The notes under the pieces are model-generated. The model ran no database searches, had not been told where the DNA came from, and worked only from the letters and a program-made list of their open reading frames with translations. This document shows, piece after piece, positions 627 through 37,887 of a stretch of DNA of 64,000 nucleotides. Numbering within the stretch: the stretch's first letter is position 1; every line of letters starts with the position of its first letter. Position numbers and translations under genes: made by a program. This stretch comes from an uncultured Nitrospiraceae bacterium (GTDB lineage: Bacteria > Nitrospirota > Nitrospiria > Nitrospirales > Nitrospiraceae): NCBI GenBank assembly GCA_963846575.1, contig CAWJWJ010000002.1:1472001-1536000 (forward strand), in the 5' to 3' direction.

Positions 627-701
627 GGTACCCCTCCGGTTGGAATGAACTGCACAGAGACGACGTTGGATCGCATCCTACTTAGGTTGAAGTCTCCTGA
701 A

Positions 702-721
702 AACTAGGGGCTGCCCTAGTT
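702..721 (-). promoter_or_regulatory. Palindromic activator box AACTAGG-GGCTGC-CCTAGTT with -10 TAGGAT (675-680) for the gene starting at 626
   Basis: Perfect 8-bp arms; -10 lies 21 nt downstream on the minus strand. Confidence 0.75.
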
Positions 722-764
722 CTTTCGTAGGATTGGCAGGGGAAGCCACTGTCAAGAGCTTGGT

Positions 765-796
765 TCCACGTCCCGGCCGGTAAGCCGGGACGTGGA
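765..796 (-). terminator. 13-bp stem-loop downstream of the 835-1299 gene
   Basis: TCCACGTCCCGGC-cggtaa-GCCGGGACGTGGA; no clear U-tract. Confidence 0.5.
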
Positions 797-834
797 GGTG
801 GCAGGAACGGAACGATTGCCCGACGGCCGTAGAA

Positions 835-1299
835 CTACTGCGAGTCCGCCTTGTGACGCGACAGCTTCTGAATCAGCTCAGCGGCCCCTCCGTCCGAGGC
901 CACGACCTTGACATAGTCCCCGGTTTGAAAGGTGCAGCCCTCCTTGCCCTTCGCAATAAACTCCAACCCCTGTCCCGGATTGTCGGCAGGGCTCTTGGAG
1001 GCGCTGGACGGCAGGTCCTTGACCGCTTCGCGGCTGGAAGACAAATCTGCGCCCGTTCCACTGGTGCAAATCACATTAGTGTCCTTCGTCACCCGCAAGT
1101 TGATCTCTTTGCCATGGTCGCCTTTGATGAAATATTCGTCGGCATGAATTCGATCAATCGTTCCGAAAATAGCCTTGTCCTGTCCTGCCTGGTTCGTCGC
1201 CTGATCCTTGTTGCTCGCTTCCGCCGTCCAGGGGATGCCGATGGCCACGAGCCCTGCGACGATTATGCCGGCTGAATCGAATCCTGTCCTCTGGGTCAT
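835..1299 (-). CDS. Exported hypothetical protein
   Basis: AGGAGG RBS before ATG at 1299; hydrophobic signal ending AEA; two Cys. Confidence 0.7.
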   Translation of the reverse strand: MTQRTGFDSAGIIVAGLVAIGIPWTAEASNKDQATNQAGQDKAIFGTIDRIHADEYFIKGDHGKEINLRVTKDTNVICTSGTGADLSSSREAVKDLPSSASKSPADNPGQGLEFIAKGKEGCTFQTGDYVKVVASDGGAAELIQKLSRHKADSQ

Positions 1300-1491
1300 C
1301 ACTACCTCCTTGATGAATGGTGAGGAGTCCGATCCGACATGGAGCGGACCCATACTCCTCATATCCTCCATGCTGGCCCGGGGCATCTGGAGATCCCCCT
1401 GGTCTCGACGTCGTCCAAACCATCATTTTGAAGCGGTAGATTCGCTGAAGGGCACTGTAGAGGAACGCGCCGAAGACATCGGGGACAGCTC

Positions 1492-3225: not shown

Positions 3226-3306
3226 TCCGCCCACCCCTTCCCTAAGGCCCACATGCCTCTGTTGTCGGTTTACCGGATCAAGCTACCGGCTTTAGTTTCC
3301 CGAGGC

Positions 3307-3338
3307 AGCTAGGAAGTCTCCTAGGGAAGTTCCGAGCT
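3307..3338. promoter_or_regulatory. Two overlapping palindromic boxes in a divergent promoter; -10 TAGCTT (3280-3285) on the minus strand
   Basis: AGCTAGG-AAGTCT-CCTAGGG (3307-3326) and TCCTAGG-GAAGTT-CCGAGCT (3319-3338). Confidence 0.7.
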
Positions 3339-7756: not shown

Positions 7757-7776
7757 CCCTCGTTATAACCCTAGTT
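7757..7776 (-). promoter_or_regulatory. Palindromic box (minus strand AACTAGG-GTTATA-ACGAGGG) with -10 TAACGT (7730-7735)
   Basis: Same motif geometry, 21-nt spacing, oriented toward the 7674 gene. Confidence 0.6.
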
Positions 7777-7878: not shown

Positions 7879-7898
7879 ACCTAGGGATTCTCCGAGTT
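7879..7898 (+). promoter_or_regulatory. Palindromic box ACCTAGG-GATTCT-CCGAGTT with -10 TAGGCT (7919-7924) for the ku operon
   Basis: 20-nt spacing to TAnnnT. Confidence 0.7.
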
Positions 7899-8008: not shown

Positions 8009-8218
8009 GTGAGGATATGTCCTTTCGATTGCCATGTGTGTGACGAACCGGATTGTCGGCGAGGCGCATGCAAAGTAGTGGGGGACGCGATGTTGTCGGT
8101 CTGCGACGGCTGCGGCGAACCGGTTGCCTGTCTTAACTGCGCCTGCCTTTGTGCGTTGTGTGCTCACGAGTCGTCCAGCAAACCCTCCGCCAAGAAGCCG
8201 ATCCGCAAGAAGGTGTGA
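8009..8218 (+). CDS. Small cysteine-rich (12 Cys in 69 aa) putative metal-binding protein
   Basis: GTG start after GGAG; several CxxC/CxC clusters, basic tail; stop lies 1 nt before the ku ATG. Confidence 0.6.
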   Translation: MRICPFDCHVCDEPDCRRGACKVVGDAMLSVCDGCGEPVACLNCACLCALCAHESSSKPSAKKPIRKKV

Positions 8219-8219
8219 C

Positions 8220-9080
8220 ATGCCTCGACCGCTCTGGAAAGGCACGATCAGTTTTGGACTCGTCAATATTCCCGTGGTGCTGTATTCGGCGGAGAACCGG
8301 AACAACTTCGATTTGACGTTGTTGGACCGCCGCGACATGAAGCCCGTCGGGTTCAAGCGGTACAACAAAGAAACCGGGAAAGATGTGACATGGGACCAGA
8401 TCGTGAAGGGGTATGAATACGAGAAGAGCCGCTATGTGGTACTGACGGACGAGGATTTTCGCCGCGCGAATGTTGAAGCGACGCAAACCATCGACATCGT
8501 GCGGTTCGTACGGGCTGAAGACATTTCACCGACGTCGTTCGAGACGCCCTACTATCTCGCTCCTGACAAACGGGGAGAGAAGGGTTATGCGCTGCTACGG
8601 GAAACGCTGAAAAAAACCGGAAAGGCGGGCATTGCCACCGTGGTCATCCGCACGAGGCAGTATGTTGCGGCGTTGATTCCGTGGGACGAGATGATCGTCT
8701 TGAATACGTTGCGGTATGCCAACGAGCTGAAACCCGGCAAAGCCCTTGAGATTCCCGCCAAAAGTCTCAAGGCTTCCGGCGTGACGCCGCGCGAGTTGGA
8801 GATGGCCACCAAGCTGGTGGATGAGTTGTCGGATGCCTGGAAGCCCGCGCAATACAAAGACACCTATCATGATGATCTGATGCGTCTGATCAACAAACGC
8901 ATCAAGGCCGGAAAAACCGAGGTCGTCACGACCGAGGAAAAAGACGGCGAAAAGGGCCGACCGGCACGGGCCAAGGTCGTGGACCTCATGGCTCTGCTCA
9001 AACGCAGTGTGCAGCAGTCCGGTAAATCAAAAGGACGGACCCCGAAACAGTCCCGTCCCGTGAGTCGCAAAACGGCCTGA
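8220..9080 (+). CDS. ku: Non-homologous end-joining protein Ku
   Basis: MPRPLWKGTISFGLVNIPV...IVKGYEYEK...basic C-tail. Confidence 0.97.
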   Translation: MPRPLWKGTISFGLVNIPVVLYSAENRNNFDLTLLDRRDMKPVGFKRYNKETGKDVTWDQIVKGYEYEKSRYVVLTDEDFRRANVEATQTIDIVRFVRAEDISPTSFETPYYLAPDKRGEKGYALLRETLKKTGKAGIATVVIRTRQYVAALIPWDEMIVLNTLRYANELKPGKALEIPAKSLKASGVTPRELEMATKLVDELSDAWKPAQYKDTYHDDLMRLINKRIKAGKTEVVTTEEKDGEKGRPARAKVVDLMALLKRSVQQSGKSKGRTPKQSRPVSRKTA

Positions 9081-9088
9081 TTTTTCCG

Positions 9089-10204
9089 ATGAAACCTCTT
9101 GCCGTCCCTACCACGAGCAGGCTCAATCCCGAACGCTCCGCCGTTGACGCATTTCGATCCGCCAGGACCGCCGGCCTCCGGTATGTCTCGGACCTGAGGC
9201 CGGGCATAGCCCGGAAGGGACGAGGGAAACGCGTCTCGTACATCCGCCCGGACGGCACCGTCATTCGCGGGCAGGTGTGTCTGAAGCGGATTCGCTCACT
9301 CGTCATTCCACCGGCTTGGACCGACATCTGGATCTGTCTTGACCCGCAGGGGCACCTGCAGGCCACGGGCCGAGATGTGCGGGGCCGCAAGCAATATCGG
9401 TATCATCCACGCTGGAACGACATCAGAAACGAGACCAAGTACCACCGCATGCTCACCTTCGGCCGCCTGCTGCCGCGCATTCGCCGGCGGGTGACCGCCG
9501 ATCTGAGACGCCCCGGTCTGCCGCGAGAGAAAATTCTCGCCACCGTCGTGCGGCTGCTTGAAGTGACCCTGATCCGGATCGGCAACGAAGAATATGCACG
9601 GACCAACGAGTCCTTCGGCTTGACGACCCTGCGGGATCGCCATGTGAAGGTGAAGGGCAGCACGCTTCGCTTTGAGTTCCACGGAAAAAGCGGGATCCGC
9701 CACAGCGTGGATGTGACCGACCGGCGCCTGGCTCGGATCGTCAGGCAAAGCCAGGAACTCCCCGGATACGAACTCTTTCAGTATCTCGACGAGGACGGGA
9801 CACGGCGGTCCATTACGTCAAGCGACGTCAATGGGTATCTGCAGCGCATCGCCGGTCAGAACTTCACGGCGAAGGACTTCCGCACCTGGGCCGGGACGGT
9901 TCTGGCGGCGCGGGCGCTCAAGGAATACGCGGGGCGATGCGACTCCCTGAAGCAGGCGAAACGAAACGTGGCCGCCGCCATCGGCGTCGTGGCCCTGCAG
10001 TTGGGTAACACGAAGGCCGTCTGTCGAAAGTGTTACATCCACCCGAAGATTGTTCAGGCCTACCTGGACGGCACGTTACTCGATAGTCTCAACCGGCCGG
10101 CACGGCGGGACTCGCTCCGGGCGTTGCCGCGTCTCCCGCCGGAAGAAGCCGCCGTTTTGAGTTTTTTGCATGAGCGCCTCCTGAACTCAGTCGAACTCAC
10201 ATAG
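9089..10204 (+). CDS. Bacterial DNA topoisomerase IB
   Basis: IPPAWTD.WI, GRKQYRYH, RIGN, KDFRTW, catalytic Tyr in CRKCYIHP. Confidence 0.95.
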   Translation: MKPLAVPTTSRLNPERSAVDAFRSARTAGLRYVSDLRPGIARKGRGKRVSYIRPDGTVIRGQVCLKRIRSLVIPPAWTDIWICLDPQGHLQATGRDVRGRKQYRYHPRWNDIRNETKYHRMLTFGRLLPRIRRRVTADLRRPGLPREKILATVVRLLEVTLIRIGNEEYARTNESFGLTTLRDRHVKVKGSTLRFEFHGKSGIRHSVDVTDRRLARIVRQSQELPGYELFQYLDEDGTRRSITSSDVNGYLQRIAGQNFTAKDFRTWAGTVLAARALKEYAGRCDSLKQAKRNVAAAIGVVALQLGNTKAVCRKCYIHPKIVQAYLDGTLLDSLNRPARRDSLRALPRLPPEEAAVLSFLHERLLNSVELT

Positions 10205-10216
10205 AGGGGCATCACC

Positions 10217-12127
10217 ATGAAAGGTGTGGATACAGACGTCGTACCGCAAACTGTTTCTGCATGTCAGGGATCCTCCGCTCACCCCACCCGGCTTGGAGCT
10301 CATGTGACACCCGAAGGGGTGGCCTTCCGCTGCTGGGCGCCGAAGCCCACCACAGTGGAAGTCGTGCTTGAGCCTCAGGGGACGGTCTATGCTTTGAGCA
10401 GAGAGGCCGATGGCTATTGGGTCGGTGTGGTGCCGGAGGCATCGACCGGCATGACGTACCGGTATCGTCTGGATGGTAAAGGACTATACCCTGATCCCTG
10501 TTCACGGTTTCAACCGGATGGACCTCATGGACCGTCGCTGATCGTCGATCGGAACTCGTTCCGGTGGAGCGACCAGGAGTGGGCCGGCCTCACCATGCAC
10601 GGTCAGGTGATATATGAATTGCACATCGGGGCGTTCACCCCCGAAGGAACCTTTGATTCCGCCATCACCCGTCTGGATGCCCTGAAGGAACTGGGAATCA
10701 CCTGCATCGAAGTCATGCCGGTGGCGGAATGCCCGGGCCGGTGGAACTGGGGATACGACGGGGTCGGTCTCTATGCGACGACCCACGTCTATGGCAACCA
10801 GGATGGCTTGAAACGGTTCGTGGACGAAGCGCATCGACGGGGACTCGGGGTGATCCTCGACGTGGTCTACAATCACCTGGGTCCGGAAGGGAATTACCTG
10901 CCGGCGTTCAGCGATGACTACTTTACCGACCGCTATCCGAATGAGTGGGGTCAGGCCATCAATTTTGACGGAGCTGGTTCGTCGGGAGTGCGGGAATTTT
11001 TCATTCAAAACGCCTGCTACTGGATCGAGGAGTTTCATCTGGATGGGCTCAGGCTGGACGCGGTCCATGCCTTTCATGACAGCGGTCCGGTTCATGTGAT
11101 TGCGGAACTCTCTCAAGCGGCCAGGCGGGCGGCCGGCAGCAGATCGATCATTCTGATCGCCGAATGCGAAGCCCAATGGATCTGCACCATTCAGCCGGTG
11201 GCGCAGCAAGGGTGGGGACTTGATGCAGTCTGGAGCGAAGATTTTCACCATACCACCCGCGTGGCGGCCACCGGGCGAAGCGAGGGCTATTACACCGATT
11301 ACCGGGGCACGCCCCAGGAACTCATCTCCTGTGTCAAACGGGGATTCCTCTATCAAGGCCAGCGATACCAATGGCAGCAGAAACCACGGGGAACCGTCGT
11401 CACGGGAGAGCCGGCGGACGGGTTCGTCTTCTTTCTTCAAAACCACGATCAGGTGGCCAATCAGTTGCGTGGCGACCGCCTGCACCAGAAGACCAGCCCC
11501 GGGGTCTACCGTGCCCTGACGGCGCTGCTCCTGTTGGTCCCTCAGACTCCCATGTTGTTCATGGGCCAGGAATTCGCGGCCTCCGCTCCCTTCATGTTCT
11601 TCGCAGATTTTCCACCGGGCGAACTGGCGCGGCAGATCCACGAAGGCAGGAAACAGTTTTTGGCGCAATTTCCGAGTTACGGGTCGCCGGATGCACAGGC
11701 CGCGATCGCCGATCCTTCTGCCGCGGCGGTCTATCGCCGGTCGAAACTAGATTGGTCGGAGCGCGAACGGCATGTTGAGTCCTATGCGTTGCACCGGGAC
11801 CTGCTCCGGCTGCGCCGCGAGGATGCGGTTATTGCCCAACAGGCGCGCGATCGCGTGGACGGTGCCGTGATCGGACCGGCGGCCTTCGTGCTGCGGTACG
11901 CCGGGCCGGCAGGAGAGGATCGGCTCCTGGTCGTCAATCTGGGCGCCGACCACGACTTTCGTCCGGCTCCCGAACCGTTGCTCGCCCCTCCGGCCGGGCG
12001 CTCCTGGTCAATGGCCTGGTCGAGCGATGCCCCCGCCTATGGAGGACCCGGAGTCATCGACCCCCTGACCGACACAGGATGGGTGGTTCCTGGCGGATCG
12101 GCAACATTCTATTCCACGCGACGTTGA
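10217..12127 (+). CDS. treZ: Malto-oligosyltrehalose trehalohydrolase (GH13)
   Basis: NWGYDG, DVVYNHLGPEGNYL, GLRLDAVH, QNHDQVAN, MLFMGQEF. Confidence 0.92.
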   Translation: MKGVDTDVVPQTVSACQGSSAHPTRLGAHVTPEGVAFRCWAPKPTTVEVVLEPQGTVYALSREADGYWVGVVPEASTGMTYRYRLDGKGLYPDPCSRFQPDGPHGPSLIVDRNSFRWSDQEWAGLTMHGQVIYELHIGAFTPEGTFDSAITRLDALKELGITCIEVMPVAECPGRWNWGYDGVGLYATTHVYGNQDGLKRFVDEAHRRGLGVILDVVYNHLGPEGNYLPAFSDDYFTDRYPNEWGQAINFDGAGSSGVREFFIQNACYWIEEFHLDGLRLDAVHAFHDSGPVHVIAELSQAARRAAGSRSIILIAECEAQWICTIQPVAQQGWGLDAVWSEDFHHTTRVAATGRSEGYYTDYRGTPQELISCVKRGFLYQGQRYQWQQKPRGTVVTGEPADGFVFFLQNHDQVANQLRGDRLHQKTSPGVYRALTALLLLVPQTPMLFMGQEFAASAPFMFFADFPPGELARQIHEGRKQFLAQFPSYGSPDAQAAIADPSAAAVYRRSKLDWSERERHVESYALHRDLLRLRREDAVIAQQARDRVDGAVIGPAAFVLRYAGPAGEDRLLVVNLGADHDFRPAPEPLLAPPAGRSWSMAWSSDAPAYGGPGVIDPLTDTGWVVPGGSATFYSTRR

Positions 12128-14211: not shown

Positions 14212-14217
14212 CAGGCC

Positions 14218-14946
14218 ATGGCCGTTGTGCGAATCGGCACGTCAGGCTGGCACTACAAACATTGGCTCGGTCCCTACTATCCCCCAGACCTGCCTCTCCG
14301 CGGCATGCTCGATTACTATGCCCGGGACTTTGACAGCGTCGAGATCAACAATAGCTTTTACCGTCTGCCATCACCGGCCACGTTCCAGGCCTGGCGCGAT
14401 GCCACGCCGGAAGATTTCTGTTTTGCCGTGAAGGCCAGCCGCTACCTGACGCATCGGAAAAAACTGATCGAGCCACAGAACCCTCTTGCCACGCTCCTGG
14501 CTGCTGCTCAGGTGTTGGGACAAAAACTCGGACCCGTCCTGTTCCAATTGCCGCCGAACTGGCACTGCCATCTGGCGCGGTTGCGGGAGTTTCTCGGGGC
14601 GCTCCCCCCGGGCCACCGGTACAGCATCGAATTTCGTGATGTCAGCTGGCACAACGAATCCGTCTACCGTTTGCTACGAGCCCACAACGTTGCCTTCTGT
14701 CTCTACGACCTGGGAGGCGTGCAATCCGCGCTCGAGGTCACGGCGGATTTCGTGTACGTGAGGCTGCATGGGCCGGGGGCCAAGTACCAAGGGAGTTACT
14801 CGAAGCGGGCACTCGCGAGCTGGGCCAAGCGGATCGACCGTTGGCGCAGAGCGGATCTTGGCGTCTATGTCTACTTCGATAATGACCAAGCCGGGTATGC
14901 GACCATCAATGCCTTGACGCTCCACGAGGCCTTGCACACCGGTTGA
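14218..14946 (+). CDS. DUF72 (YecE) family protein
   Basis: IGTSGW.Y, VEINNSFY, FAVKASRYLTH, YVRLHG, YFDND. Confidence 0.93.
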   Translation: MAVVRIGTSGWHYKHWLGPYYPPDLPLRGMLDYYARDFDSVEINNSFYRLPSPATFQAWRDATPEDFCFAVKASRYLTHRKKLIEPQNPLATLLAAAQVLGQKLGPVLFQLPPNWHCHLARLREFLGALPPGHRYSIEFRDVSWHNESVYRLLRAHNVAFCLYDLGGVQSALEVTADFVYVRLHGPGAKYQGSYSKRALASWAKRIDRWRRADLGVYVYFDNDQAGYATINALTLHEALHTG

Positions 14947-23556: not shown

Positions 23557-23576
23557 CACTAGGGAACCCTCCTGCC
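23557..23576 (-). promoter_or_regulatory. Degenerate box facing actA (GGCAGGA-GGGTTC-CCTAGTG) with imperfect -10 TATGTA (23530-23535)
   Basis: One full half-site and the same 21-nt spacing. Confidence 0.45.
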
Positions 23577-23609: not shown

Positions 23610-23629
23610 GGCTAGGGGACCTACTAGCT
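23610..23629 (+). promoter_or_regulatory. Palindromic box GGCTAGG-GGACCT-ACTAGCT with -10 TACAGT (23651-23656)
   Basis: 21-nt spacing; faces the OMP-slp-ligD genes. Confidence 0.65.
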
Positions 23630-27974: not shown

Positions 27975-27994
27975 ACCTGGGGGGACTGCTAGTA
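27975..27994 (+). promoter_or_regulatory. Degenerate box ACCTGGG-GGGACT-GCTAGTA with imperfect -10 TATCAG (28016-28021)
   Basis: Same geometry, about 78 nt before the 28072 ATG. Confidence 0.5.
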
Positions 27995-28376: not shown

Positions 28377-28565
28377 ATGGCACAGTTCATGGTCCCACTC
28401 ATGCGATCCGGAGCCTTATGGTCCTGCAGTCGAACCGCCCGCCTCGATCAGCGGCGGGGATTCTGGACACGGGTGCTGCGATGGTTTTCGGGCGATCCCG
28501 AGCACCCGCCGATCTCGCTTGTTTTTCGTAGTTCCGCGCTCAGGCGGGGAACGCGACGGTACTGA
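28377..28565 (+). CDS. Small hypothetical protein (62 aa)
   Basis: GAGGAGG RBS before ATG; MAQFMVPLMRSGALW...RGFWTRVLRWF. Confidence 0.5.
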   Translation: MAQFMVPLMRSGALWSCSRTARLDQRRGFWTRVLRWFSGDPEHPPISLVFRSSALRRGTRRY

Positions 28566-28911
28566 AGAGGGCATTTTCGGCTTGCCGGGAGTCCAGCCGC
28601 GTCTGCTGGACGACGATCGGGATATTCGATTCGACGACGCAGGCGTAATCGGTATCGAGGGGGACGGGAGCCGGGTCCGCCAGATCATTGATACGCAGAT
28701 GTTTGGTCCGCCGTGCGGCAACGGTTACCCGATAGGGTCCGACAGGCTCGCGGTCAGAAAAATACACGGTGATGCGGACCTCCGCCTCCCGGTCTGCTGT
28801 ATTCAGCAGGCAGAGAGTCTCGTGGCTCAGCATTTGCGGAGACGGCCCATGGCTCCCCGCCGGGATGTATCCTTCTGCCAATGCCCATCTCGTCCGTCCG
28901 ATTGCTTCCAT
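28540..28911 (-). CDS. Anabaena sensory rhodopsin transducer (ASRT) family protein
   Basis: IGRTRW..AEGYIP, SHET.C.LN, VVQ.TRLDSRQAENAL. Confidence 0.9.
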   Translation of the reverse strand: MEAIGRTRWALAEGYIPAGSHGPSPQMLSHETLCLLNTADREAEVRITVYFSDREPVGPYRVTVAARRTKHLRINDLADPAPVPLDTDYACVVESNIPIVVQQTRLDSRQAENALFSTVAFPA

Positions 28912-28955
28912 GGCGACATGCTCCTCTTCTCTGGTTGTGATGCCCTACGCCCTGC

Positions 28956-30710
28956 TTAGACCACCTCCCTGATTTTATTTTCGACAAAGGTTTTGACGAG
29001 CGCCCAGGGATCCTCGGTCCCCCGCGCCAGCGCCCTCGCGAACTGCCAAGCCTGGTCGGTCGTGATTTTGCCGGGCAGCGGCGCTTCGAAAGGATCGATC
29101 ACGGCTTGCACCACGACCGGGCCGGGCAGCGAGAAGGCCTGTTGCAGGACTCCGCGGACCTGACGAGGATCCTCCACCGTCAATCCCGTCACGCCGCAGG
29201 CCTGCGCAACGCCGGCGAAATCGATGGGCTGCAGTTCCACTCCGTACTGAGGATTGCCTTCGAAAGCCAGCTGTTCCCATTTGATCATGCCGAGGAGGTT
29301 GTTTTTCATCACGATGATTTTAACGGGCAGGGCATATTTCACCAAGGTGGCCAGTTCTCCCATCAACATGGTGAACCCGCCGTCCCCCGCGATACAGACA
29401 ATCTGCCGGCCGGGGTACGCCACGGCGGCGCCTATACTGTAGGGCAGACCGTTGCCCATTGAAGCCAGCGTTCCGGAGGCGGAAAACTCCATCGTGCCTT
29501 TCATTCGGATATGACGAGCCGCCCAGGTGGTGAGGGTGCCGGTGTCGCAGCAGATAATGGCGTCATCGGCGAGGAATTCATTCATGGCATGTACCACGAC
29601 CTGGGGCTTGAGGGGCGAGTCCATTCTGGTGCCGCGTTCTTCCATGAGTTGGTTCCAGCGCCCCATGTTGTGCTGTGCGGATTCCAGAAAACGACGGTCG
29701 GTCTTTTTCTCCAGCAGAGGCAGCAGGGCACGGAGCACATCCCAGCATTGCCCGACGAGTCCCACTTCCACCGGGTAGCGCAATCCGATTCGAGCGGCAT
29801 CGAGATCGATCTGGACGGCCCTGGCCTGGCCCGGTTTCGGATAGAATTCCAGATAAGGAAAACTGCTGCCGGCAATGATGAGCGTGTCGCAGTCTTCCAG
29901 CACGTCCTGGGAGGGAGCGGTGCCTAACAAACCGATGCCCCCTGTGGTGAGGGGATGATCGTCGGGTACCAGGCCTTTGCCCAGTAACGGCTTGATGATG
30001 GGGGCCCCTAGGAGGTCCGCCAGCTCAATGATTTCTGATTTAGCCGCCAAACACCCGCGCCCCGCGAGGATCGCGATCTTCGATCCTGCCTGGATGACAC
30101 GCGCGGCCTTCTGAAGCAGCGTCGGGGACGGGAGGGGAAGCGGGTCGGTATAGAGGTCTCCGCTGTGCAAGGGAATATTGGCTTTGGAACGTTTGTTGTC
30201 CGCACTCCAGTCCTGGATGTCTTTGGGAATGGTCAGGTGCGCCACTGTGCGATGGGAAATCGCCGCTTTGATGGCCGCATCGACCACGTTATTCACATGC
30301 CCGGGCCCCATCACCCGCTCGGTGTAGGCGGCCACGTCGCCGAAGAGTGTATTCAAATCGACGTCCTGTTGGTAATGGGTCCCGATCAAATCGTGGAAGG
30401 TGTGCCCGGTGATCGCCAACACCGGTTGCCCGTCGCTTTTGGCATCGTATAAGCCGTTCAGGAGGTGAATACCGCCGGGCCCGGAGGTGGCCAGGCAGAC
30501 GCCCAATCGCCTGGTGAACTTGGCATAGCCGCAGGCGGCGAAGGCGGCCGATTCTTCGTGCCTTACCAGAACGAGCCTGATTTTATCCTGTCGCGTTCGC
30601 AGAGCCTCATAGATCCCGTTGATGCCGTCTCCCGGCAGACTGAACACGGTATCCACGCCCCAGTCGATCAACCGCTCAATCAAAATATCTGCGACGGTGT
30701 GCGCCATCAT
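28956..30710 (-). CDS. TPP-dependent pyruvate oxidase (PoxB family)
   Basis: LPGDGING, VRHEESAA, SGPGGIHLLNGLYDAK, GDGGF...NN. Confidence 0.88.
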   Translation of the reverse strand: MMAHTVADILIERLIDWGVDTVFSLPGDGINGIYEALRTRQDKIRLVLVRHEESAAFAACGYAKFTRRLGVCLATSGPGGIHLLNGLYDAKSDGQPVLAITGHTFHDLIGTHYQQDVDLNTLFGDVAAYTERVMGPGHVNNVVDAAIKAAISHRTVAHLTIPKDIQDWSADNKRSKANIPLHSGDLYTDPLPLPSPTLLQKAARVIQAGSKIAILAGRGCLAAKSEIIELADLLGAPIIKPLLGKGLVPDDHPLTTGGIGLLGTAPSQDVLEDCDTLIIAGSSFPYLEFYPKPGQARAVQIDLDAARIGLRYPVEVGLVGQCWDVLRALLPLLEKKTDRRFLESAQHNMGRWNQLMEERGTRMDSPLKPQVVVHAMNEFLADDAIICCDTGTLTTWAARHIRMKGTMEFSASGTLASMGNGLPYSIGAAVAYPGRQIVCIAGDGGFTMLMGELATLVKYALPVKIIVMKNNLLGMIKWEQLAFEGNPQYGVELQPIDFAGVAQACGVTGLTVEDPRQVRGVLQQAFSLPGPVVVQAVIDPFEAPLPGKITTDQAWQFARALARGTEDPWALVKTFVENKIREVV

Positions 30711-30734
30711 GCTCCTTTTGCGATCACATGGAGG

Positions 30735-31922
30735 TCAGGGTGCGGTGGTACTGCGCGTCAGCCGTGGAAGCACCAGTTCCTGGGCGAGGATTTTCAAACA
30801 GGCGGCGACGGGGATTGCGAGCAGCAGTCCGTAAAATCCGCCGATCGCGCCGCCGATGAAGATCACGATCAATACGGTCACAGCGCTCAGGTCCATGGAC
30901 TGGCTCTGGACCCAGGGCGTCAGCATCCAACTCTCGATGAATTGCACGACGAGATAGGCCAGCGAAGGCCACACCACCACCGTCATGAGATCAAAACTGC
31001 CGCTACCCGAGAGGATGTCGAGATATTTCAGGAGTATGGCCAGCGGCCACCCGAGGAGCGACGCATAGGGGATGATGGTGAGGATTCCGGTGAACAACCC
31101 CAGAATAAACCAGTAGCGTATTCCTGTGAGCGCCCATGCAAGCGAATAGAGAATGGCCGAGCCGAGGGCGATCGCGACGCGCCCGCGGAAGAAGCCGCTC
31201 ACCGCTTCGTCCATCCGTCGCGCGATACGGCGGACCTGCGGTCGATATTGGACGGGGATGTAGCGCTTGAGCTCGGTGAGTGCGCTGTCGAATTGCCATG
31301 CGAAGAAGAAAAAATAGATCGGGACCAAGGTGAATGCCAGGACCACGGCGGTCGTGGTGCCGATGACCGCGCCCAGCATACCGAACGCCTGTCCCGTCCC
31401 TGAGAAGAGCGGTCTCAGGATGGAAAGGGGATCTTCCTTGAGGGAGGTCGCAATCGTCGACAGCGGCTCGGAGAAATCACCGAGACTGATGTGATACTGC
31501 TGCGCGATGCTCTCGATGTACCGCGGCACACGCTCGGCAAGCGACTGGACCTGCTCCGCGAGGAGCGGCCCCAACCACGTCACCAGTCCGCCGAAGGTGA
31601 GGACGGAGAGGAGGAGCAGGAGGGAAATCGACAGGGGACGGGGAACGTTCCACTGCTTCTCCGCCTTGGTGATCAAAGGATTGCATAAATAGGCGAGGAG
31701 AAGTGCGGTCAGGACGGGGGTAAACACCCCGCGCAGATAGTATCCAAACCAGAGCAGGCCCAGGATGCCGGTCACCCATAACACATCCCGGACCGGCGTG
31801 ATTTCCCACAGGTGGCGGTCTTGGGCCGGTCGCGGTTCTGCCGCCGCCGTCACACGAACCGCCACATCGCGCAGCATCGGACTTTGCTCCTCCGCCAGCG
31901 CCTCTGGATATTCTGATTTCAT
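30735..31922 (-). CDS. AI-2E family transporter
   Basis: LLAYLCNP, IPY, VQFIES..LTP, GG..G.LLAIP. Confidence 0.9.
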   Translation of the reverse strand: MKSEYPEALAEEQSPMLRDVAVRVTAAAEPRPAQDRHLWEITPVRDVLWVTGILGLLWFGYYLRGVFTPVLTALLLAYLCNPLITKAEKQWNVPRPLSISLLLLLSVLTFGGLVTWLGPLLAEQVQSLAERVPRYIESIAQQYHISLGDFSEPLSTIATSLKEDPLSILRPLFSGTGQAFGMLGAVIGTTTAVVLAFTLVPIYFFFFAWQFDSALTELKRYIPVQYRPQVRRIARRMDEAVSGFFRGRVAIALGSAILYSLAWALTGIRYWFILGLFTGILTIIPYASLLGWPLAILLKYLDILSGSGSFDLMTVVVWPSLAYLVVQFIESWMLTPWVQSQSMDLSAVTVLIVIFIGGAIGGFYGLLLAIPVAACLKILAQELVLPRLTRSTTAP

Positions 31923-31944
31923 CCGCCTGTGATCCCTTTCCCGG

Positions 31945-32913
31945 TTAGGAGCCTGCGTGAAGCGGCTCAGCTCGCGTCTGTCGCGTCCGCGCACGGCGTA
32001 AGGCCGAAGCCGCATGCTCGATCAGGGCATTCATCTCTCCCCCGAGCAGGATCACGACGCCTGTCAAGTAGAGCCACAGCATAAGTACAATGACTCCTGC
32101 AATGGACCCGTACGCGGCATTATAAGTTCCAAAATGGTCCACATACACCTTGAAGCCCAGGGAGACTCCCACCCATAACGAGACCGCGAACACGGACCCG
32201 GGAGTCACCCACCGCCAATCATGCTCGATATTAGGACAAACAAAATAGATGATCGCCAATGCCAGGAGCATGAGTAGCACGGCCACCGGCCATTGCAAGA
32301 CGTTCCAGGTGATGAGAAATAACCAGCTGAGCCCCACCAGACTCGTGATCCATTCACCGATGCGGGCGCCATACAGGATCAAGGTCATGGACACGATGAT
32401 AAAGAGGGCAAGCCCGATTGTCAGGAGCGTGGCAATGACGCGAACTTTCCAGTAAGGCCTGGTCTCTTCCGCGCCGTACACGATGTTTAAGGTCTCCATA
32501 ATCGCCGTCACGCCGGTCGAGGAAGCCCACAAGGCGCCGAGTAGACCGAGCGAGAGGACGTCCCCGCCGCTGCCTTCCACCACGTTATCCAGATACCTCT
32601 GGAGGAGCGAGAGGGCGTCTGAGGGTAGGACGGTGCGAAGGTACGCGAGGAGTTCGGGCATGACCCGCTCGAGAGGGAACAGGCCGAGGACAGCAGTCAG
32701 AAACAGGAGTGCCGGAAACAACGCGAGCAGGAAATAAAAGGCCAACTGGGCGGCGCGGCCGAGAATGTCATTCTTCTGGCTGTCCTGCCAGAGACGCTGT
32801 CCTAAATCCTTCCAACCGAGGCCGCCGAGCTTCCATGGGTTGGAACGCGGAGACGGACTGGTCAATGAAGCGGGCACGAAATCCCTCTCAGGAAAGCAAG
32901 AACCGCTGCGCAT
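31945..32913 (-). CDS. YihY/BrkB family membrane protein
   Basis: AAQLAFYFLLALFP, Y...YGSIAGVIVLMLWLY. Confidence 0.92.
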   Translation of the reverse strand: MRSGSCFPERDFVPASLTSPSPRSNPWKLGGLGWKDLGQRLWQDSQKNDILGRAAQLAFYFLLALFPALLFLTAVLGLFPLERVMPELLAYLRTVLPSDALSLLQRYLDNVVEGSGGDVLSLGLLGALWASSTGVTAIMETLNIVYGAEETRPYWKVRVIATLLTIGLALFIIVSMTLILYGARIGEWITSLVGLSWLFLITWNVLQWPVAVLLMLLALAIIYFVCPNIEHDWRWVTPGSVFAVSLWVGVSLGFKVYVDHFGTYNAAYGSIAGVIVLMLWLYLTGVVILLGGEMNALIEHAASALRRARTRQTRAEPLHAGS

Positions 32914-32973
32914 CGCAGGACGGCCGGAGCCATGGGTTCCCGGCCGTCCTGGAGGCTGAGGGCCGGCATAACG

Positions 32974-33741
32974 TTAGCTTTCAGAATATTCCTGCGAGCC
33001 TGTGGCTGTGACGGGCCTCGTCGCGGATTGTGCAGGTGGATTGGATGCGCGATTGCGTAGGTTCTCTCCTTCTGGTCGTGAGGCCGAGGTAGCAGGACGC
33101 CGGGTTGTCGACCCCTGGCCGGTTTCGAACTGAGACGAGAGATTGACCCCGAAGGAACGCGCGATCTCCGGCATCATTTTGCGCGCTAATTCCAACATCA
33201 GGGAACGCCCGAACTGCATGAGTACCGCCTTCGTCTCCTCGGCCTCCTGAGTGAACTCCTGCGACATGCCGTCCCACAGATTCGATCGATGTGAGGCTGA
33301 CTGCCGCGTGCGGGGACGAGGCCCGGTCGGATAGTAGTCGTAAATGCCTTCCTTCCGCTCGGTCGTCGCACCGGGTTGTCGAGCCGATTCCGGCATGACC
33401 CGCGAGGCATGGGCGCCGGGCGGATAGTAGGGGTAGACGCCGCTACGTCGGCTTCGGGATTCCATCATGCCGATCGCGAAGCCCACGCCTATCGCCCCGC
33501 CGAGCATGAGCCAGGGGAATTCGTCAACCTTGTGAATCGGATTGAGGGCCGCTTTGGTTTTGTCGACCATCTGATTGACGCTGTGCGACGTCTCATCGAG
33601 CATCTGCGAAAATTTCATGGTCGCTCCCTCCGCCGTATCCTTAATGCGTTGTTCCAGCAGCTCGAGCTTTTCGGCTATGGCTACTCGCGTGTGGACAATG
33701 TCTTTCAAGTCCTGGTCGATAGTAGTTGTTCTTTGATCCAT
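32974..33741 (-). CDS. Hypothetical protein (DUF3618/DUF883-like)
   Basis: N-terminal coiled coil; PWLMLGGAIGVGF anchor. Confidence 0.65.
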   Translation of the reverse strand: MDQRTTTIDQDLKDIVHTRVAIAEKLELLEQRIKDTAEGATMKFSQMLDETSHSVNQMVDKTKAALNPIHKVDEFPWLMLGGAIGVGFAIGMMESRSRRSGVYPYYPPGAHASRVMPESARQPGATTERKEGIYDYYPTGPRPRTRQSASHRSNLWDGMSQEFTQEAEETKAVLMQFGRSLMLELARKMMPEIARSFGVNLSSQFETGQGSTTRRPATSASRPEGENLRNRASNPPAQSATRPVTATGSQEYSES

Positions 33742-34112
33742 CGTGCATCTTCCTTTATAGAGTGGACGGTACGGAAGGGCCAGAGGCGCAGGCTCGAGCC
33801 CACCCTTGCCAGGTTATACACAACAAGGCCGCTGAGTGCGGCGGCCATCAATGCCACCAACCCGTAACAACCCCAGAGGGGAAGGCCGGTATAGGTATGG
33901 AGGAGGTGAACCATCATGACGAGAAGAAAGGTGACCGTGACCAGGCCAAGCACCAGACCGACCGCGGCATACAACAGGCCCGAGACGACCTTGCGCAGCT
34001 CCAGCTGCATCTCATGCTGAGCCAGTCGAATTTCCTGGTTGAACAGTTGGCGAAGGTCGGCGACGAGGCCGCTCGCCAGCGCCGCAATGGAAATCGGATG
34101 AGGGTTCTCCAT
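33705..34112 (-). CDS. YqjE / holin superfamily III-like membrane protein
   Basis: L..DL..LF.QEI.LA..E, two TMs, P.RTV.SIKED..WIK. Confidence 0.85.
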   Translation of the reverse strand: MENPHPISIAALASGLVADLRQLFNQEIRLAQHEMQLELRKVVSGLLYAAVGLVLGLVTVTFLLVMMVHLLHTYTGLPLWGCYGLVALMAAALSGLVVYNLARVGSSLRLWPFRTVHSIKEDARWIKEQLLSTRT

Positions 34113-34133
34113 AGGGATTCCTTTCCGCTAGGT

Positions 34134-34463
34134 TCAGTCGGTGCGCAGTCGTGAGAGTAAATATCCGCAGCCCACACCTACCATGAGGGCCTGCAGGGGA
34201 TACCGTCTGATCAGCAGTTCGAGATCCTCCACGATGCCGGACATGCCTTCTTGCTGTAAATAATCGGCGGTGCGCCGAACCCCCTGCGATACCGCCTCCG
34301 CCGCTTCGCCGAACGTGCCGCTGCCAGAGAACTGCTCGCTTGCGGAATCAAGCACCTCTTCGGCCCGCCCGGTGAGTTTCTGAGCCGAATGGGCCGTATC
34401 ACTCGCGACGTTCTTGATGGCCGATCCGATGGCTTCTTCCAAGCTTAACTTTTCGCGTTCCAT
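34134..34463 (-). CDS. ElaB/YqjD-like tail-anchored protein
   Basis: IRRYPLQALMVGVGCGYLL C-terminal anchor; GGAGG RBS. Confidence 0.7.
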   Translation of the reverse strand: MEREKLSLEEAIGSAIKNVASDTAHSAQKLTGRAEEVLDSASEQFSGSGTFGEAAEAVSQGVRRTADYLQQEGMSGIVEDLELLIRRYPLQALMVGVGCGYLLSRLRTD

Positions 34464-34599
34464 AATCCGGTTCCTCCATGAAAACAACGATCGGTGCTTC
34501 TCAAGGCACGCTCGCCTGAGGTGATAATTCACTCCGTGGTATTCACTTCGTGATGATGCACTTCTTCAAGTCAGACTAGCGCGCCGGAGCAGACCGATG

Positions 34600-34619
34600 A
34601 ACTGGGCAAAGCCCTAGAC
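34600..34619 (-). promoter_or_regulatory. Palindromic box AACTGGG-CAAAGC-CCTAGAC with -10 TAGTCT (34573-34578)
   Basis: 21-nt spacing; heads the 34463-28540 minus-strand gene run. Confidence 0.7.
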
Positions 34620-35194: not shown

Positions 35195-35214
35195 AACTGG
35201 GCAAGACCCTAAAT
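35195..35214 (-). promoter_or_regulatory. Palindromic box AACTGGG-CAAGAC-CCTAAAT with -10 TAGTGT (35168-35173)
   Basis: 21-nt spacing; upstream of the hemerythrin gene. Confidence 0.7.
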
Positions 35215-35242: not shown

Positions 35243-35395
35243 CTAGATGCGATCCGTCATGGTGAGAAGCAGGATCACCAATAAGACGGCTCCCATCAGG
35301 CTGCTGGGATAGAATCCCCAATGACGGCTATAGGACCAGGCGGGAAGGGCACCGATGACCAGCAGACTCACGAGGATCGGGAGGAGGTTGTTCAT
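35243..35395 (-). CDS. DUF3309 family small membrane protein (50 aa; absent from the ORF track)
   Basis: MNNLLPILVSLLVIGALPAWSYSRHWGFYPSSLMGAVLLVILLLTMTDRI; GGAGG RBS. Confidence 0.85.
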   Translation of the reverse strand: MNNLLPILVSLLVIGALPAWSYSRHWGFYPSSLMGAVLLVILLLTMTDRI

Positions 35396-35470
35396 CTGGG
35401 TCCCTCCATAGGGGAAGTCGAGAGGGGGAGTCGAGACATGCCGTTGACGGCACGCCTCGACTGGGCCCGC

Positions 35471-36946
35471 TTATCGGACGTCCTGCTTCAACAATGCCCG
35501 GGAATTCGTGTCCTCCACTGCAATCCGACCGTTCGCGCTCGCAGTGCCTTGAAGCAGAATGGTGGCCACTAAGGCCTGGGGAGTGGAGAGTGCCTGGTCC
35601 GGCTGTTCGCTGGTCACTAGAATGTCCATGGTGATGTTCCCGGAGGTATGGTTGCCGGTCATGGCTTGTTTCATGCGCTCGAGCTGTAAGGAAAAGTCAG
35701 AGACGGCCGCCTTCCGAAGTCGCTCCTGTAACTCCCGGTCTACGGTTTTCCAATATCCCATGCGAATGGAGTCAATGGCGGTTTTCGACTCGTTCGCCAT
35801 CTGGAGATCGGGAACCGTCAGAGCCTTACCCCCGTCCTCCAGGTGAGGGGTACCCCAATAGTAAATCTTTCCGCGGAGATCACCGCTTGTTTCGACCGTG
35901 AGGAGCACGCGACCGTTCGCATCTGAGGCCGTGACCTGTTCAATGACTGCTGTTTCCGAGCCTGCGGGATCCAAAGCAAGCGACTGATGAAATAACTTGC
36001 TCTGCAACTGGTGGCTGAGATTGGCGTAGGTGACCGGGATACGTGCCAGCACTTTAAACGGCTTGGCCTCCCCCGAAATGGTGCCCGCATTGATGAGCGC
36101 CGTGGTCGGAGACGCGTCATGGCAGGTCGGCTCAAAGGTAACAGTCGGCATTTGCCTGGCCACCGCGCTGATAATCGTATTCTGCGTGGTCCCTTTTTGC
36201 GGACCCAAGGTCAGTTCCCTCGGGTTTCCATATAAACATGTCCGTGTATTGAGGGAGGCCACGGGGACGGAGACGGGCCCCTCCAGATCATCCCAAAGGC
36301 GCTGGAATTGTAAGCCGAATGTGTCCGGCCGGACAGCGGACGCCAGCGCGGCTTTTGCTTCGGATAGAGAGAATAACTCGGCAAGTTGATCCTTGACGGG
36401 GACGTTGAACATGTTGCAACGCGAGTCGCTTTCAGGCTTGAGCCCCGTGTTGACCCCAGAGGGCTCGAAACTGAAGGCGACCGAGTCATGATTCTGTAGT
36501 AGCACCAGTTTCCCCGTTGCATCCAGGGTCGTATAGACGGGATCGAGCCGGCAAGCGCTGGATCCGCCCCTGGCTTCGATCTGACCCTGATATTCGGCAT
36601 GGATGGCCACGAGACCGTCCTGAATCCGCACTTCGGGCTGGCCGCTACGGACAAACGTCCATCGAAAATCCTGCGCCAGAGGATGTCCTGCCTCGGTAAA
36701 CCGCTCAGGTATGGCGTCGCGGATGGCCGTTTGCACCGGCGTGAGGTCTGTTTTAATCTGCAGCGGCACCTGAGAGACCGGCGCTTTGGGCTGTTCTTTT
36801 TTCATGTCCTCAAACGAGGGGACGCGGCTGGTAATCGGTGGTGGTACCGGCTTCGTCGAAGCCTGTGGAATCGTATGGCTGCAGGCCCCGACAGCCATCA
36901 GGACGGACAGCAATGCCGGAACGGTAGCGCGTGAACGGTATTTCAT
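35471..36946 (-). CDS. DUF4403-like lipoprotein
   Basis: VGAC lipobox; beta-rich; G.IY.WGTP motif. Confidence 0.7.
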   Translation of the reverse strand: MKYRSRATVPALLSVLMAVGACSHTIPQASTKPVPPPITSRVPSFEDMKKEQPKAPVSQVPLQIKTDLTPVQTAIRDAIPERFTEAGHPLAQDFRWTFVRSGQPEVRIQDGLVAIHAEYQGQIEARGGSSACRLDPVYTTLDATGKLVLLQNHDSVAFSFEPSGVNTGLKPESDSRCNMFNVPVKDQLAELFSLSEAKAALASAVRPDTFGLQFQRLWDDLEGPVSVPVASLNTRTCLYGNPRELTLGPQKGTTQNTIISAVARQMPTVTFEPTCHDASPTTALINAGTISGEAKPFKVLARIPVTYANLSHQLQSKLFHQSLALDPAGSETAVIEQVTASDANGRVLLTVETSGDLRGKIYYWGTPHLEDGGKALTVPDLQMANESKTAIDSIRMGYWKTVDRELQERLRKAAVSDFSLQLERMKQAMTGNHTSGNITMDILVTSEQPDQALSTPQALVATILLQGTASANGRIAVEDTNSRALLKQDVR

Positions 36947-37069
36947 CGAAGCCTCCCTGACATCATCGACCGCAGCTCGACCCCCTGCGGCGCACGTGAC
37001 GTCACGACCAGGGTCCGTACCGGCCGATCCGCCGCGACGAAACGCGACGGATCGGTTGGCGCCGAGCGA

Positions 37070-37375
37070 CTAGGGTTGAATTTGTAAATTATTATTGACG
37101 GTTCTGACGCCCTTCACCTCACGAGCCAGATCCGCAACCCGGATTTTTTGGTCCGCTGATTTAACGACCCCGTTCAACGTCACCACGCCGCGCTCCGTAT
37201 CCACGTCGATCCGCGAAAAGTTGGACAGGCGATCGGAGGAGAGTTTGGACTGTACGGAGGCCGTGATCGTGGCATCATCGATCGTCTGTCCGGCCGTCTT
37301 CCCGGTGGTAGACTGGCACCCGAAGATGGACAGAGAGGCAATGGCAAGCACGATGCAGGCAAAACGACTCATCAT
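37070..37375 (-). CDS. BON domain lipoprotein
   Basis: IFGC; IDDATITASV..KL, IDVDT..GVVTL.G.V, V.GV..V.NNL. Confidence 0.92.
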   Translation of the reverse strand: MMSRFACIVLAIASLSIFGCQSTTGKTAGQTIDDATITASVQSKLSSDRLSNFSRIDVDTERGVVTLNGVVKSADQKIRVADLAREVKGVRTVNNNLQIQP

Positions 37376-37432
37376 GATAATTCTCCTGGTCTATGTGTGG
37401 TTGAACTCAATGGCAACTTCGTCAGACCAGCG

Positions 37433-37753
37433 TTATCGGGATGTGGCTTCCGAAGCGACCTTCTCCGCAGTCTCCGCGCCTTTGTCGACAAATTCGCGGG
37501 CGCTCCGCCCGGCATTCCGGATGGCCTGCTTGCCGCCTTCCACATATTCCTGGCCACGTTCCACGACATTGTCCCATGCAGCCCGGCCCTGTTCGGCCGC
37601 ATCGTCGAGTTCGTCTTTGGCACGGGAGGCATAATCCCTCAGCGAGGACCGAAGCTCAGATCCTGATTGTGGCGCCAACAACAATGCGATGCCGGCGCCG
37701 ATAAACGCACCAGCCATAAAGGCCGACCAGTTGGATGATTCTTCTGTATACAT
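37433..37753 (-). CDS. YtxH domain protein
   Basis: FMAGAFIGAGIALLLAPQSGSELR. Confidence 0.92.
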   Translation of the reverse strand: MYTEESSNWSAFMAGAFIGAGIALLLAPQSGSELRSSLRDYASRAKDELDDAAEQGRAAWDNVVERGQEYVEGGKQAIRNAGRSAREFVDKGAETAEKVASEATSR

Positions 37754-37867
37754 TGCTCAACCTCCTTCGTTCTACGTATCGAAACCGTTGATAGATGTAA
37801 TTGACGATGCACTGTCGTCCCTGTCCGCTGTGCTGTTTCTCAGTCTAACAAGCCGACGGAAATCGCT

Positions 37868-37887
37868 AACTAGGCAAGGCCCTAGTT
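37868..37887 (-). promoter_or_regulatory. Palindromic box AACTAGG-CAAGGC-CCTAGTT with -10 TAGACT (37842-37847)
   Basis: Perfect 7-bp arms; 20-nt spacing; upstream of ytxH-BON. Confidence 0.78.

Follow-up and report, generated by a model that had tools for sequence, protein, structure and literature searches.

A 20-base palindrome precedes the -10 box by a fixed spacing at about nine survival-gene promoters of an uncultured Nitrospiraceae bacterium

The stretch of DNA analysed here (hereafter the window) comprises 64,000 nucleotides (nt), G000:C2:1472001-1536000, of the genome of an uncultured Nitrospiraceae bacterium, which is 4.2 Mb in size, assembled in two contigs and 99.93% complete. About nine promoters of survival genes in this window carry a 20-base palindrome that lies upstream of the -10 box, at a constant distance from it. 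A palindromic position weight matrix (PWM), seeded with the 20 exact CTAGG-N6-CCTAG copies of the genome and then iterated, has the consensus aACTAGGgaa/ttcCCTAGTt, i.e. aACTAGGg-N4-cCCTAGTt, and finds nine window sites of at least 12 bits, at positions 702, 3307, 3319, 7757, 7879, 23610, 27975, 34600 and 37868 (numbered from the first base of the window). All nine fall within positions 1-38,000 and are intergenic, a term that rests throughout on our own gene calls based on open reading frames (ORFs), and the same scan finds no site of at least 12 bits in 38,001-64,000. The strict pattern CTRGG-N6-CCKAG matches nine times at six distinct places (704, 3309, 3321, 7881, 34602 and 37870); dinucleotide shuffles of the window predict 0.31 matches, and none of 100 shuffles reaches nine.

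The top site of the genome's PWM, AACTAGGGGCTGCCCTAGTT (702..721, 25.0 bits), has a -10-like hexamer, TAGGAT, on the minus strand at 675..680, 31 nt from the dyad, and faces a 154-aa ORF without a Pfam family (162-626, minus strand). At AGCTAGGAAGTCTCCTAGGG (3307..3326, 18.2 bits) the hexamer TAGCTT (3280-3285, minus strand) faces the gene for a 586-aa HAD-type hydrolase (1492-3252, minus strand) and ORF 835-1386 (minus strand). This palindrome overlaps by 8 bp a second one (3319..3338, 17.1 bits), which faces an unknown gene at 3390-4394 and a member of the low-affinity iron permease family at 4397-4849 (both plus strand), and which has a canonically spaced TAnnnT on neither flank. A half-degenerate palindrome (7757..7776, 12.1 bits) with the hexamer TAACGT (7730-7735, minus strand) faces ORF 7219-7731 (minus strand), behind which lie genes for an Slp lipoprotein (6503-7069) and an FAD/Rieske oxidoreductase (4865-6427), likewise on the minus strand. 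Close by, ACCTAGGGATTCTCCGAGTT (7879..7898, 20.6 bits; hexamer TAGGCT at 7919-7924, plus strand) precedes a plus-strand string at 8124..14946 that encodes Ku, topoisomerase IB, a TreZ-like alpha-amylase (CBM48+DUF3459), a glycogen debranching enzyme and a DUF72 protein and that is, judged from spacing only, an apparent operon. The topoisomerase IB gene begins 9 nt after Ku (8124-10204, plus strand for the two) in the same apparent operon as the trehalose/glycogen enzymes, an unusual partner for non-homologous end joining.

Further along, a palindrome with one core mismatch (23610..23629, 16.6 bits; hexamer TACAGT at 23651-23656, plus strand) faces plus-strand genes for an outer membrane protein (OMP) beta-barrel (23903-24559), a second Slp (24426-25289) and LigD (25328-27940), and a palindrome-like site (27975..27994, 15.0 bits) lies 88 nt before ORF 28072-28332 (plus strand), with the hexamer absent at the canonical offset. 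The palindrome AACTGGGCAAAGCCCTAGAC (34600..34619, 16.0 bits; hexamer TAGTCT at 34573-34578, minus strand) stands before a minus-strand string at 28540..34532, which is presumably co-transcribed and comprises an unknown 132-aa protein, a Holin-X-like protein, an unknown 255-aa protein, BrkB/YihY, an AI-2E-family transporter, a TPP enzyme and an ASRT-family protein. The ASRT-family gene (Anabaena sensory rhodopsin transducer, E 1.5e-54; 28540-28911, minus strand), here found in a nitrite oxidiser, ends this string. The last palindrome, AACTAGGCAAGGCCCTAGTT (37868..37887, 21.8 bits; hexamer TAGACT at 37842-37847, minus strand), precedes genes for YtxH, BON, DUF4403 and DUF3309 proteins (35243..37753, minus strand), and between these two strings a weak copy of 8.6 bits (35195..35214), its core broken by CCCTAA, directs the hexamer TAGTGT (35168-35173, minus strand) towards a hemerythrin gene (34659-35204, minus strand). 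At 7731 and at 35204 the start of the longest ORF runs into a hexamer or site, so that both starts are probably called too long.

A preliminary description of this DNA, made from its letters, had proposed a recurrent intergenic 20-bp palindrome, phased with downstream hexamers and missing from the housekeeping half of the window. All of this is borne out: each of the eight TAnnnT hexamers that it named lies 30-31 nt from the dyad (20-21 nt past the 20-mer), and the placement of the nine sites and the empty second half are as stated above. Its roster of copies needs some revision. Most of those listed as full are so, while those at 7757, 23610 and 35195 are one or two bases off its pattern. Among three supposedly degenerate copies, each said to have TA at the same offset, the one at 27975 is a site by its score and has no such hexamer, and the one at 23557..23576 (3.3 bits) has TA in place (TATGTA, 23530-23535, minus strand) and scores as background. 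The third, at 1385..1404, was rejected as a site, being at background with 4.1 bits and without a TA hexamer at the offset. The copy at 23557 faces an operon resembling alternative complex III (ACIII) and cytochrome bd oxidase, and because this background-level copy is the only one to do so, membership of this respiratory operon in the regulon, as first proposed, is not supported. The ACIII-like module itself (14964-23525, minus strand) encodes a cytochrome c7-like protein, a molybdopterin subunit, a 4Fe-4S protein, NrfD and an ActD-cytochrome c, followed by two cytochrome bd-like oxidase genes.

Genome-wide, 63 of the 67 sites of at least 14 bits are intergenic, compared with 17% of the genome (binomial 1e-43); the raw counts themselves do not exceed all controls. 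Among the spacer lengths compared, N6 alone is enriched, CTAGG-Nx-CCTAG occurring 20 times with N6 and 0, 1, 4 and 0 times with N4, N5, N7 and N8, respectively. TAnnnT is found 30-32 nt from the dyad in 43 of 134 half-orientations, which amounts to 43 of the 67 sites, where 2.6 would be expected from other offsets, and at 18 bits or more the PWM matches the reversed genome 5 times and the real one 32 times. Furthermore, 29 of the 94 sites of at least 12 bits fall within 156 kb (G000:C2:1.422-1.5785 Mb; 3.5 expected), the cluster spanning G000:C2:1,422,000-1,510,000 with outliers up to 1,578,000. The cluster exceeds the half of the window to which an island-wide regulon had been assigned, and the regulon is genome-wide, 65 of the 94 sites lying outside the cluster. 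Intergenic placement, N6 spacing, hexamer phasing and clustering are the properties that decisively go beyond chance.

Individual sites are conserved as well. Those at 34600 and 37868 are kept in all eight other genomes of the genus that were fetched, with the hexamer offset unchanged despite divergence of the flanks upstream and of a large part of the spacer. A site is likewise present upstream of Ku in 5/5 other island-bearing genomes, with a hexamer towards Ku in three of them. Some otherwise well-matching orthologues contain in-frame stop codons (Ku in G004; RR1, a regulator introduced below, in G098; RR2-like genes in G102, G038, G136 and G104), and these may be decaying copies or assembly errors. 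Targets outside the island were considered as an independent test, and the MEDS-domain gene was found in none of 10 genomes and the KaiC-like gene in one of 10; both are accessory and therefore uninformative on the loss of sites where the regulators are absent.

The architecture of these promoters was compared at 56 one-sided sites, oriented towards their own hexamer. The half-sites are equally conserved, the promoter-proximal half scoring higher in 30 of 56 cases (Wilcoxon p=0.70); a better-conserved proximal half, which inspection by eye had hinted at and which would have suggested a sigma-type element, is thus rejected. The interval between palindrome and hexamer is uninformative at these sites, with no -35 consensus save a weak TTG at the expected -35 start, and the proximal end of the palindrome lies 20-22 nt from the hexamer. 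If transcription starts 5-9 nt past the hexamer, the dyad would lie near -43.5 and the 20-mer would end at -33 or -34. Because both halves are equally conserved and a -35 consensus is lacking, the element fits the operator of a symmetric dimer rather than a sigma element. An alternative sigma factor as the protein that reads it could be invoked on the grounds that the genome has 13 sigma-70-family genes and that stress regulons are often sigma-driven. However, the halves are equally conserved whatever the direction of the promoter, one palindrome can serve either direction, the distance to the hexamer is too long for a -35/-10 pair and the -10 is an ordinary TAnnnT, all of which makes this explanation highly improbable to us.

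We consider it likely that the palindrome is the operator of a dimeric response regulator of the NarL/FixJ type, acting as a class II activator near -43.5 of sigma-70-type promoters and serving a stress/dormancy island together with scattered targets. This proposal starts from what the sequence shows directly, namely a symmetric motif that lies between genes, at a fixed 30-32 nt from dyad to TAnnnT, in promoters without a -35 consensus, and that is conserved at orthologous promoters. A protein bound at the same position could perceivably also act as a repressor that blocks RNA polymerase at the -35 region, such that the genes would be de-repressed under stress; the site does overlap the would-be -35 position, and repression is possible for NarL-family proteins. 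Yet there is no -35 consensus to occlude, strict phasing with the -10 is typical of class II activation and the identical geometry activates in the case of DosR, so that we regard repression as improbable.

Where, then, is such an activator encoded? The genome contains 23 GerE-type genes, none of them in the window, just as the preliminary description had said of LuxR/NarL genes there. A regulator is nonetheless within reach, and on this point the earlier picture is corrected. Two convergent genes coding for proteins with Response_reg and GerE domains, RR1 (G000:C2:1445775-1446461, plus strand, 228 aa) and RR2 (G000:C2:1446610-1447266, minus strand, 218 aa), lie about 25 kb before the window and within the site cluster, and three PAS/HisKA_3/HATPase/REC hybrid kinases (G000:C2:1454149-1457691, 1457877-1459835 and 1460673-1462769) follow 7-16 kb from the pair, placing regulators and kinases together 12-26 kb before the window's first base. 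Of 75 island/window proteins scanned, none but RR1 and RR2 has a DNA-binding Pfam domain, and we regard these two as candidate operator-binding proteins. A 17.9-bit palindrome with the hexamer TATGTT is situated 117 nt before the first kinase, and palindrome plus hexamer precede the first two kinases. Genes for receiver (REC) plus GerE proteins inside the site cluster, and HisKA_3 kinases near the pair both here and at orthologues in other genera, are the linkage to be expected of a NarL/FixJ-type regulon.

The pair is adjacent and convergent in 12/12 loci from three genera, with a site of 10.5-20.7 bits upstream of RR2 in every one of them. In other genera, sites before RR1 or RR2 have hexamers aimed into the regulator genes, an arrangement that predicts autoregulation. 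The neighbourhoods of the pair in five genomes of three other genera contain 3-8 sites of at least 12 bits each, per 15-40 kb fetched, along with orthologues of Dps, CsbD, superoxide dismutase (SOD)-like, DUF1207 and HisKA_3 kinase genes. Two further features of the regulator locus deserve mention. Tandem palindromes, 26-34 bp apart from start to start, occupy the divergent region between RR2 and the SOD-like gene (G000:C2:1447433/1447459; also in L057, L069, L070, L074 and L079) and are reminiscent of tandem Dev boxes. Directly upstream of RR1 lies a 441-aa ORF (L002:4228-5553, plus strand, corresponding to G000:C2:1444228-1445553) without a Pfam or NCBIfam match, and a 15-bit palindrome is found 94 nt before it.

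The assignment of the activator to the LuxR/NarL type, i.e. to dimers with a GerE helix-turn-helix (HTH) that abut the -35 region, is supported at the level of the family; the option of a quorum regulon is not. The lux/las box is a 20-bp dyad, CT-N12-AG, that abuts the -35 and is read by GerE-type HTH proteins, and a 20-bp CT-N12-AG box near -42.5 has just this geometry, which is what a quorum-sensing regulon under a LuxR that responds to acyl-homoserine lactones would have in its favor. The likeness to LuxR/LasR promoters is one of box geometry and not of membership: the autoinducer-binding domain PF03472 has no match in the 99.9%-complete genome, where the same search finds one in Escherichia coli as a control, and the linked regulators carry phosphorylation-dependent receiver domains instead. 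Quorum sensing therefore appears to us hardly credible as an explanation.

Six paralogues in this genome, among them RR1, RR2 and a third response regulator, RR3, share the recognition helix K-x-x-E-F-H-K (hereafter EFHK). In 20 RR1/RR2/RR3 sequences the residues K184, E187, F188, H189 and K190 are invariant, as are the phospho-acceptor residues D9, D10, D53, T81 and K103. A HisKA_3 kinase/regulator operon ends with RR3, and a palindrome with hexamer, 73 nt past the RR3 stop codon, faces OEP/HlyD efflux genes; the locus (L035, G000:C2:2430001-2438000, site near 3420) reads sigma-54 activator, HisKA_3 kinase, RR3, palindrome and OEP/HlyD efflux genes. RR1, RR2 and RR3 pass none of the NCBIfam equivalogs, their best model being MctR with 163-171 bits against a cut-off of 300.

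One genome per species was scanned for EFHK-helix regulators, which yielded 80 loci (578 kb) with 93 sites of at least 14 bits. One of them, L065 of Nitrospira moscoviensis NSP M-1, encodes an RR1 relative (67% identity) that is preceded, at about 160 nt, by a 21.5-bit palindrome with a hexamer in the right spacing. The 62 loci from Nitrospirota (including Nitrospira moscoviensis) account for 83 sites, compared with 18 in shuffles, and the other 18 (16 titled Acidobacteriota, two titled 'uncultured bacterium') for 10 sites, compared with 1.9 in shuffles. In four of these 18 (L089, L101, L120 and L128; best L120, 24.5 bits) a site stands just after the regulator gene, with a correctly spaced hexamer at all but L128. 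This ties the operator type to the EFHK regulator family across two phyla, by evidence independent of the island. It also bears on the idea that a dimer of the CRP/FNR family binds the site, a 5-N6-5 element near -41.5 to -43.5 being a CRP class II layout too. The genome has four HTH_Crp_2 genes, one of which (G000:C2:135505, L036) has an 18.5-bit palindrome 237 nt upstream, the hexamer being absent at the canonical offset; this palindrome may link the regulon to a second regulator. None of the four genes is in the island, however, the motif tracks the EFHK-type GerE regulators over the 80 loci, and the half-site resembles that of FixJ and not TGTGA or TTGAT, all of which leaves a CRP/FNR protein very improbable as the factor that binds here.

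The regulator pair, the island and the palindrome share one pattern of presence and absence across 23 species of the genus. Orthologues of RR1 (85-96% identity) occur in 16 of the 23 genomes and were not found in the remaining seven at E<=1e-70. Genomes with the regulators (RR+) contain 7-18 exact palindromes (12 genomes) and those without (RR-) 1-6 (six genomes); for the composite of palindrome plus hexamer the ranges are 6-17 (nine genomes) and 3-5 (three genomes), with control patterns counted alike in both groups. In the wider family, an RR1-like gene (at least 60% identity) is present in 16 of 50 genomes from outside the genus, and their median composite count is 4 (range 0-22); for the 34 without such a gene the median is 0 (range 0-4).

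Several observations weigh against our proposal of a NarL/FixJ-type operator served by RR1 and RR2. First, co-occurrence and island are not independent of each other, since regulators and targets are gained or lost as one block: RR- genomes also lack Ku (not found at E<=1e-20 in the five searched, present in 5/5 RR+ genomes) and possess only a distant YtxH-like gene, the best match being only 37-41% identical; the 3.2-kb YtxH-like locus of these genomes contains no site of at least 11 bits. Related genomes are, moreover, not independent samples, and the 60% identity line that defines RR1-like genes outside the genus was set after the data had been seen. Second, the raw number of motifs is unremarkable at low stringency. 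CTAGG-N6-CCTAG occurs 20 times in the genome and the reversed pattern GATCC-N6-GGATC nearly as often, with 18 copies; at 14 bits or more the PWM matches the reversed genome 72 times and the real one 67 times, and below about 16 bits the raw counts do not rise above the reversed controls. As these controls are equally frequent, raw counts were dropped and are not used alone as evidence. Third, 24 of the 67 sites of at least 14 bits are without a hexamer, and, of the sites in this genome, the one closest to RR2 lacks a TAnnnT facing that gene, nor is there a site of at least 12 bits directly before RR1.

Finally, sequence alone cannot tell which of the six EFHK paralogues serves the island, because all six share the helix and some good sites, such as the one beside RR3, are retained in RR- genomes. 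It is thus conceivable that the island is driven by another paralogue (RR3 or one of the three others), or by several interchangeably, and that RR1 and RR2 are cargo or modulators. The palindrome next to RR3 persists in genus members without RR1/RR2 and even without the island, and the Acidobacterial relatives have the same layout of a regulator followed by a site, both of which would agree with such a scheme. On the other hand, where RR3 is kept but RR1/RR2 are missing, the island is missing too and only 1-6 palindromes are present; in four genera the DNA around the RR1/RR2 pair is rich in sites, and the adjoining kinase operon carries one as well. On balance we hold control by another paralogue to be unlikely.

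If RR1 and RR2 do read the palindrome, the following scheme can be drawn. The PAS/HisKA_3 hybrid kinases next door would phosphorylate RR1/RR2, and the phosphorylated dimer would recruit RNA polymerase in the fashion of DosR. The palindrome and hexamer before the first two kinases predict positive feedback. EFHK paralogues such as RR3, beside its efflux operon, probably read the same type of operator at a few targets of their own. Which protein binds, where transcription starts and what signal is sensed are all deduced here from sequence.

The genes that the sites face in the window are those for Ku, topoisomerase IB, the TreZ-like enzyme, the glycogen debranching enzyme, DUF72, OMP, Slp, LigD, YtxH, BON, DUF4403, DUF3309, hemerythrin, the HAD hydrolase, the TPP-enzyme/ASRT string and several unknown proteins. 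A shared set of survival genes (Ku, LigD, trehalose/glycogen and membrane stress) had been noted from the outset and holds, now widened by topoisomerase IB, BON, YtxH and hemerythrin. The 50 kb before the window add GlgC, alpha-amylase-family genes and GH15 (glycogen/trehalose), a hemerythrin, an SOD-like gene, a phospholipase D-like gene and the kinase operon, as well as a Dps/ferritin gene faced by a site, with two CsbD genes in the string behind it. Elsewhere in the genome the sites face genes for a ribosome hibernation factor, a KaiC-like ATPase, a MEDS protein, glycosyltransferases and further sensor kinases. Such content, judged by the names of the families, suggests a general stress or dormancy regulon and points to starvation, low oxygen or desiccation as the possible signal. 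A mobile island flanked by tRNA genes was considered and rejected, there being no tRNA gene in the window or the preceding 52 kb and one tRNA-Leu far downstream (in L005); the GC content is flat.

A literature search for the motif or regulon, which did not extend to supplementary files, found no description of either. The portions of text consulted for Nitrospira deal with CRP/FNR (NnrR) sites only, in a genome bin (PMC8510549), or contain nothing on motif or regulon (PMC8115632). New here are the pairing of two regulators, the accessory nature of the island (16 of 23 species), the helix common to six paralogues, the arrangement at RR3, the link to Acidobacteriota and the negative controls. 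The feature is real and conserved, and its proposed mechanism, a class II response-regulator operator, is an ordinary one.

Taken together, we tentatively suggest that Nitrospira, and Acidobacteriota with relatives of the same regulator family, may run a stress/dormancy programme through a phosphorelay and not through an alternative sigma factor, with a portable survival island of 90 kb and some 70 genes, carried by only some two thirds of the species in the genus, that would bring along its own two FixJ-like regulators, at least three PAS hybrid kinases and one -43.5 operator. If this is true, whether a nitrite oxidiser outlives starvation, anoxia or drying would depend on the survival island. 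In soils, waters and treatment plants nitrite is oxidised mainly by Nitrospira, in which gene regulation is almost uncharted; the operator, with its set of candidate regulators and kinases, offers a testable handle on how such slow growers enter and leave a protected state. The regulator pair and palindrome could also serve as a marker to predict which species have that capacity, and a defined promoter with its regulator pair is a potential genetic tool.

How does this system compare with known ones? Dps, CsbD, YtxH, OsmY-like proteins and the like are members of classical sigma-driven stress regulons. The gene content here resembles that of the RpoS, SigB and EcfG general stress regulons (Dps, CsbD, YtxH, BON/OsmY-like, trehalose, glycogen, ribosome hibernation factor, SOD), but the shared element is a transcription-factor palindrome before an ordinary -10 and not a sigma-specific -35/-10 pair. 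The likeness to the RcsB box, suggested early on, is again one of geometry and not of membership in the RcsB regulon, which was rejected with 77-93 bits for RR1, RR2 and RR3 under the NCBIfam RcsB model, against a cut-off of 235.

The FixLJ system of Alphaproteobacteria is closer in some respects. In the excerpts of PMC4999443 drawn on here, the FixJ site TAAGTAATTTCCCTTA, which reaches -31 at fixK, and the site GTAGTTTCCC, selected by systematic evolution of ligands by exponential enrichment (SELEX), share TTCCCT with the half-site described here, and PAS-containing kinases occur in both systems. The HTH of RR3, the sole paralogue so searched, is closest among solved structures to the group of EsrB, EL222 and FixJ (FixJ C-domain 1x3u, E 6.5e-9). 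The known FixJ regulon, in contrast, is tiny (fixK and nifA) and works through a FixK cascade, its motif is a poorly defined imperfect palindrome and the kinases here are HisKA_3 hybrids; as an equivalog, FixJ was rejected at 69-84 bits against an NCBIfam cut-off of 255.

The nearest parallel in design is provided by DosR/DevR of Mycobacterium tuberculosis and OsdR of Streptomyces, where, as proposed here, a NarL/FixJ-family dimer with REC and HTH domains sits on a 20-bp palindrome in the same -43.5 geometry. The auto-induced sensor kinases of DosR/DevR have their counterpart in the kinase feedback predicted above, and its survival/dormancy regulon includes trehalose metabolism, as does ours by gene content. 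Among solved structures DevR ranks fifth for RR1 (E 1e-24) and sixth for RR2 (E 2e-21), a similarity at the level of the family only. The recognition residues differ from those of DosR, being K-x-x-E-F-H-K here, and the protein subfamily is another one. According to the excerpts used, the DosR box has its centre at -43.5 and is combined with a suboptimal -35, a symmetric dimer contacting sigma region 4 and alpha (PMC13486717), and 33-34 bp separate the proximal Dev box from the start point (PMC3177182). In the latter source, again in part, Dev-box half-sites are GGGACT, whereas the half-site here is CTAGGG, two bases further out, and DevR promoters always carry at least two tandem boxes (2-4), whereas promoters here mostly have a single palindrome; with these differences in operator and box number, membership in the DosR/DevR orthologous group was rejected. 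Where DosR is served by DosS and DosT, the island described here has two convergent regulators and three PAS hybrid kinases.

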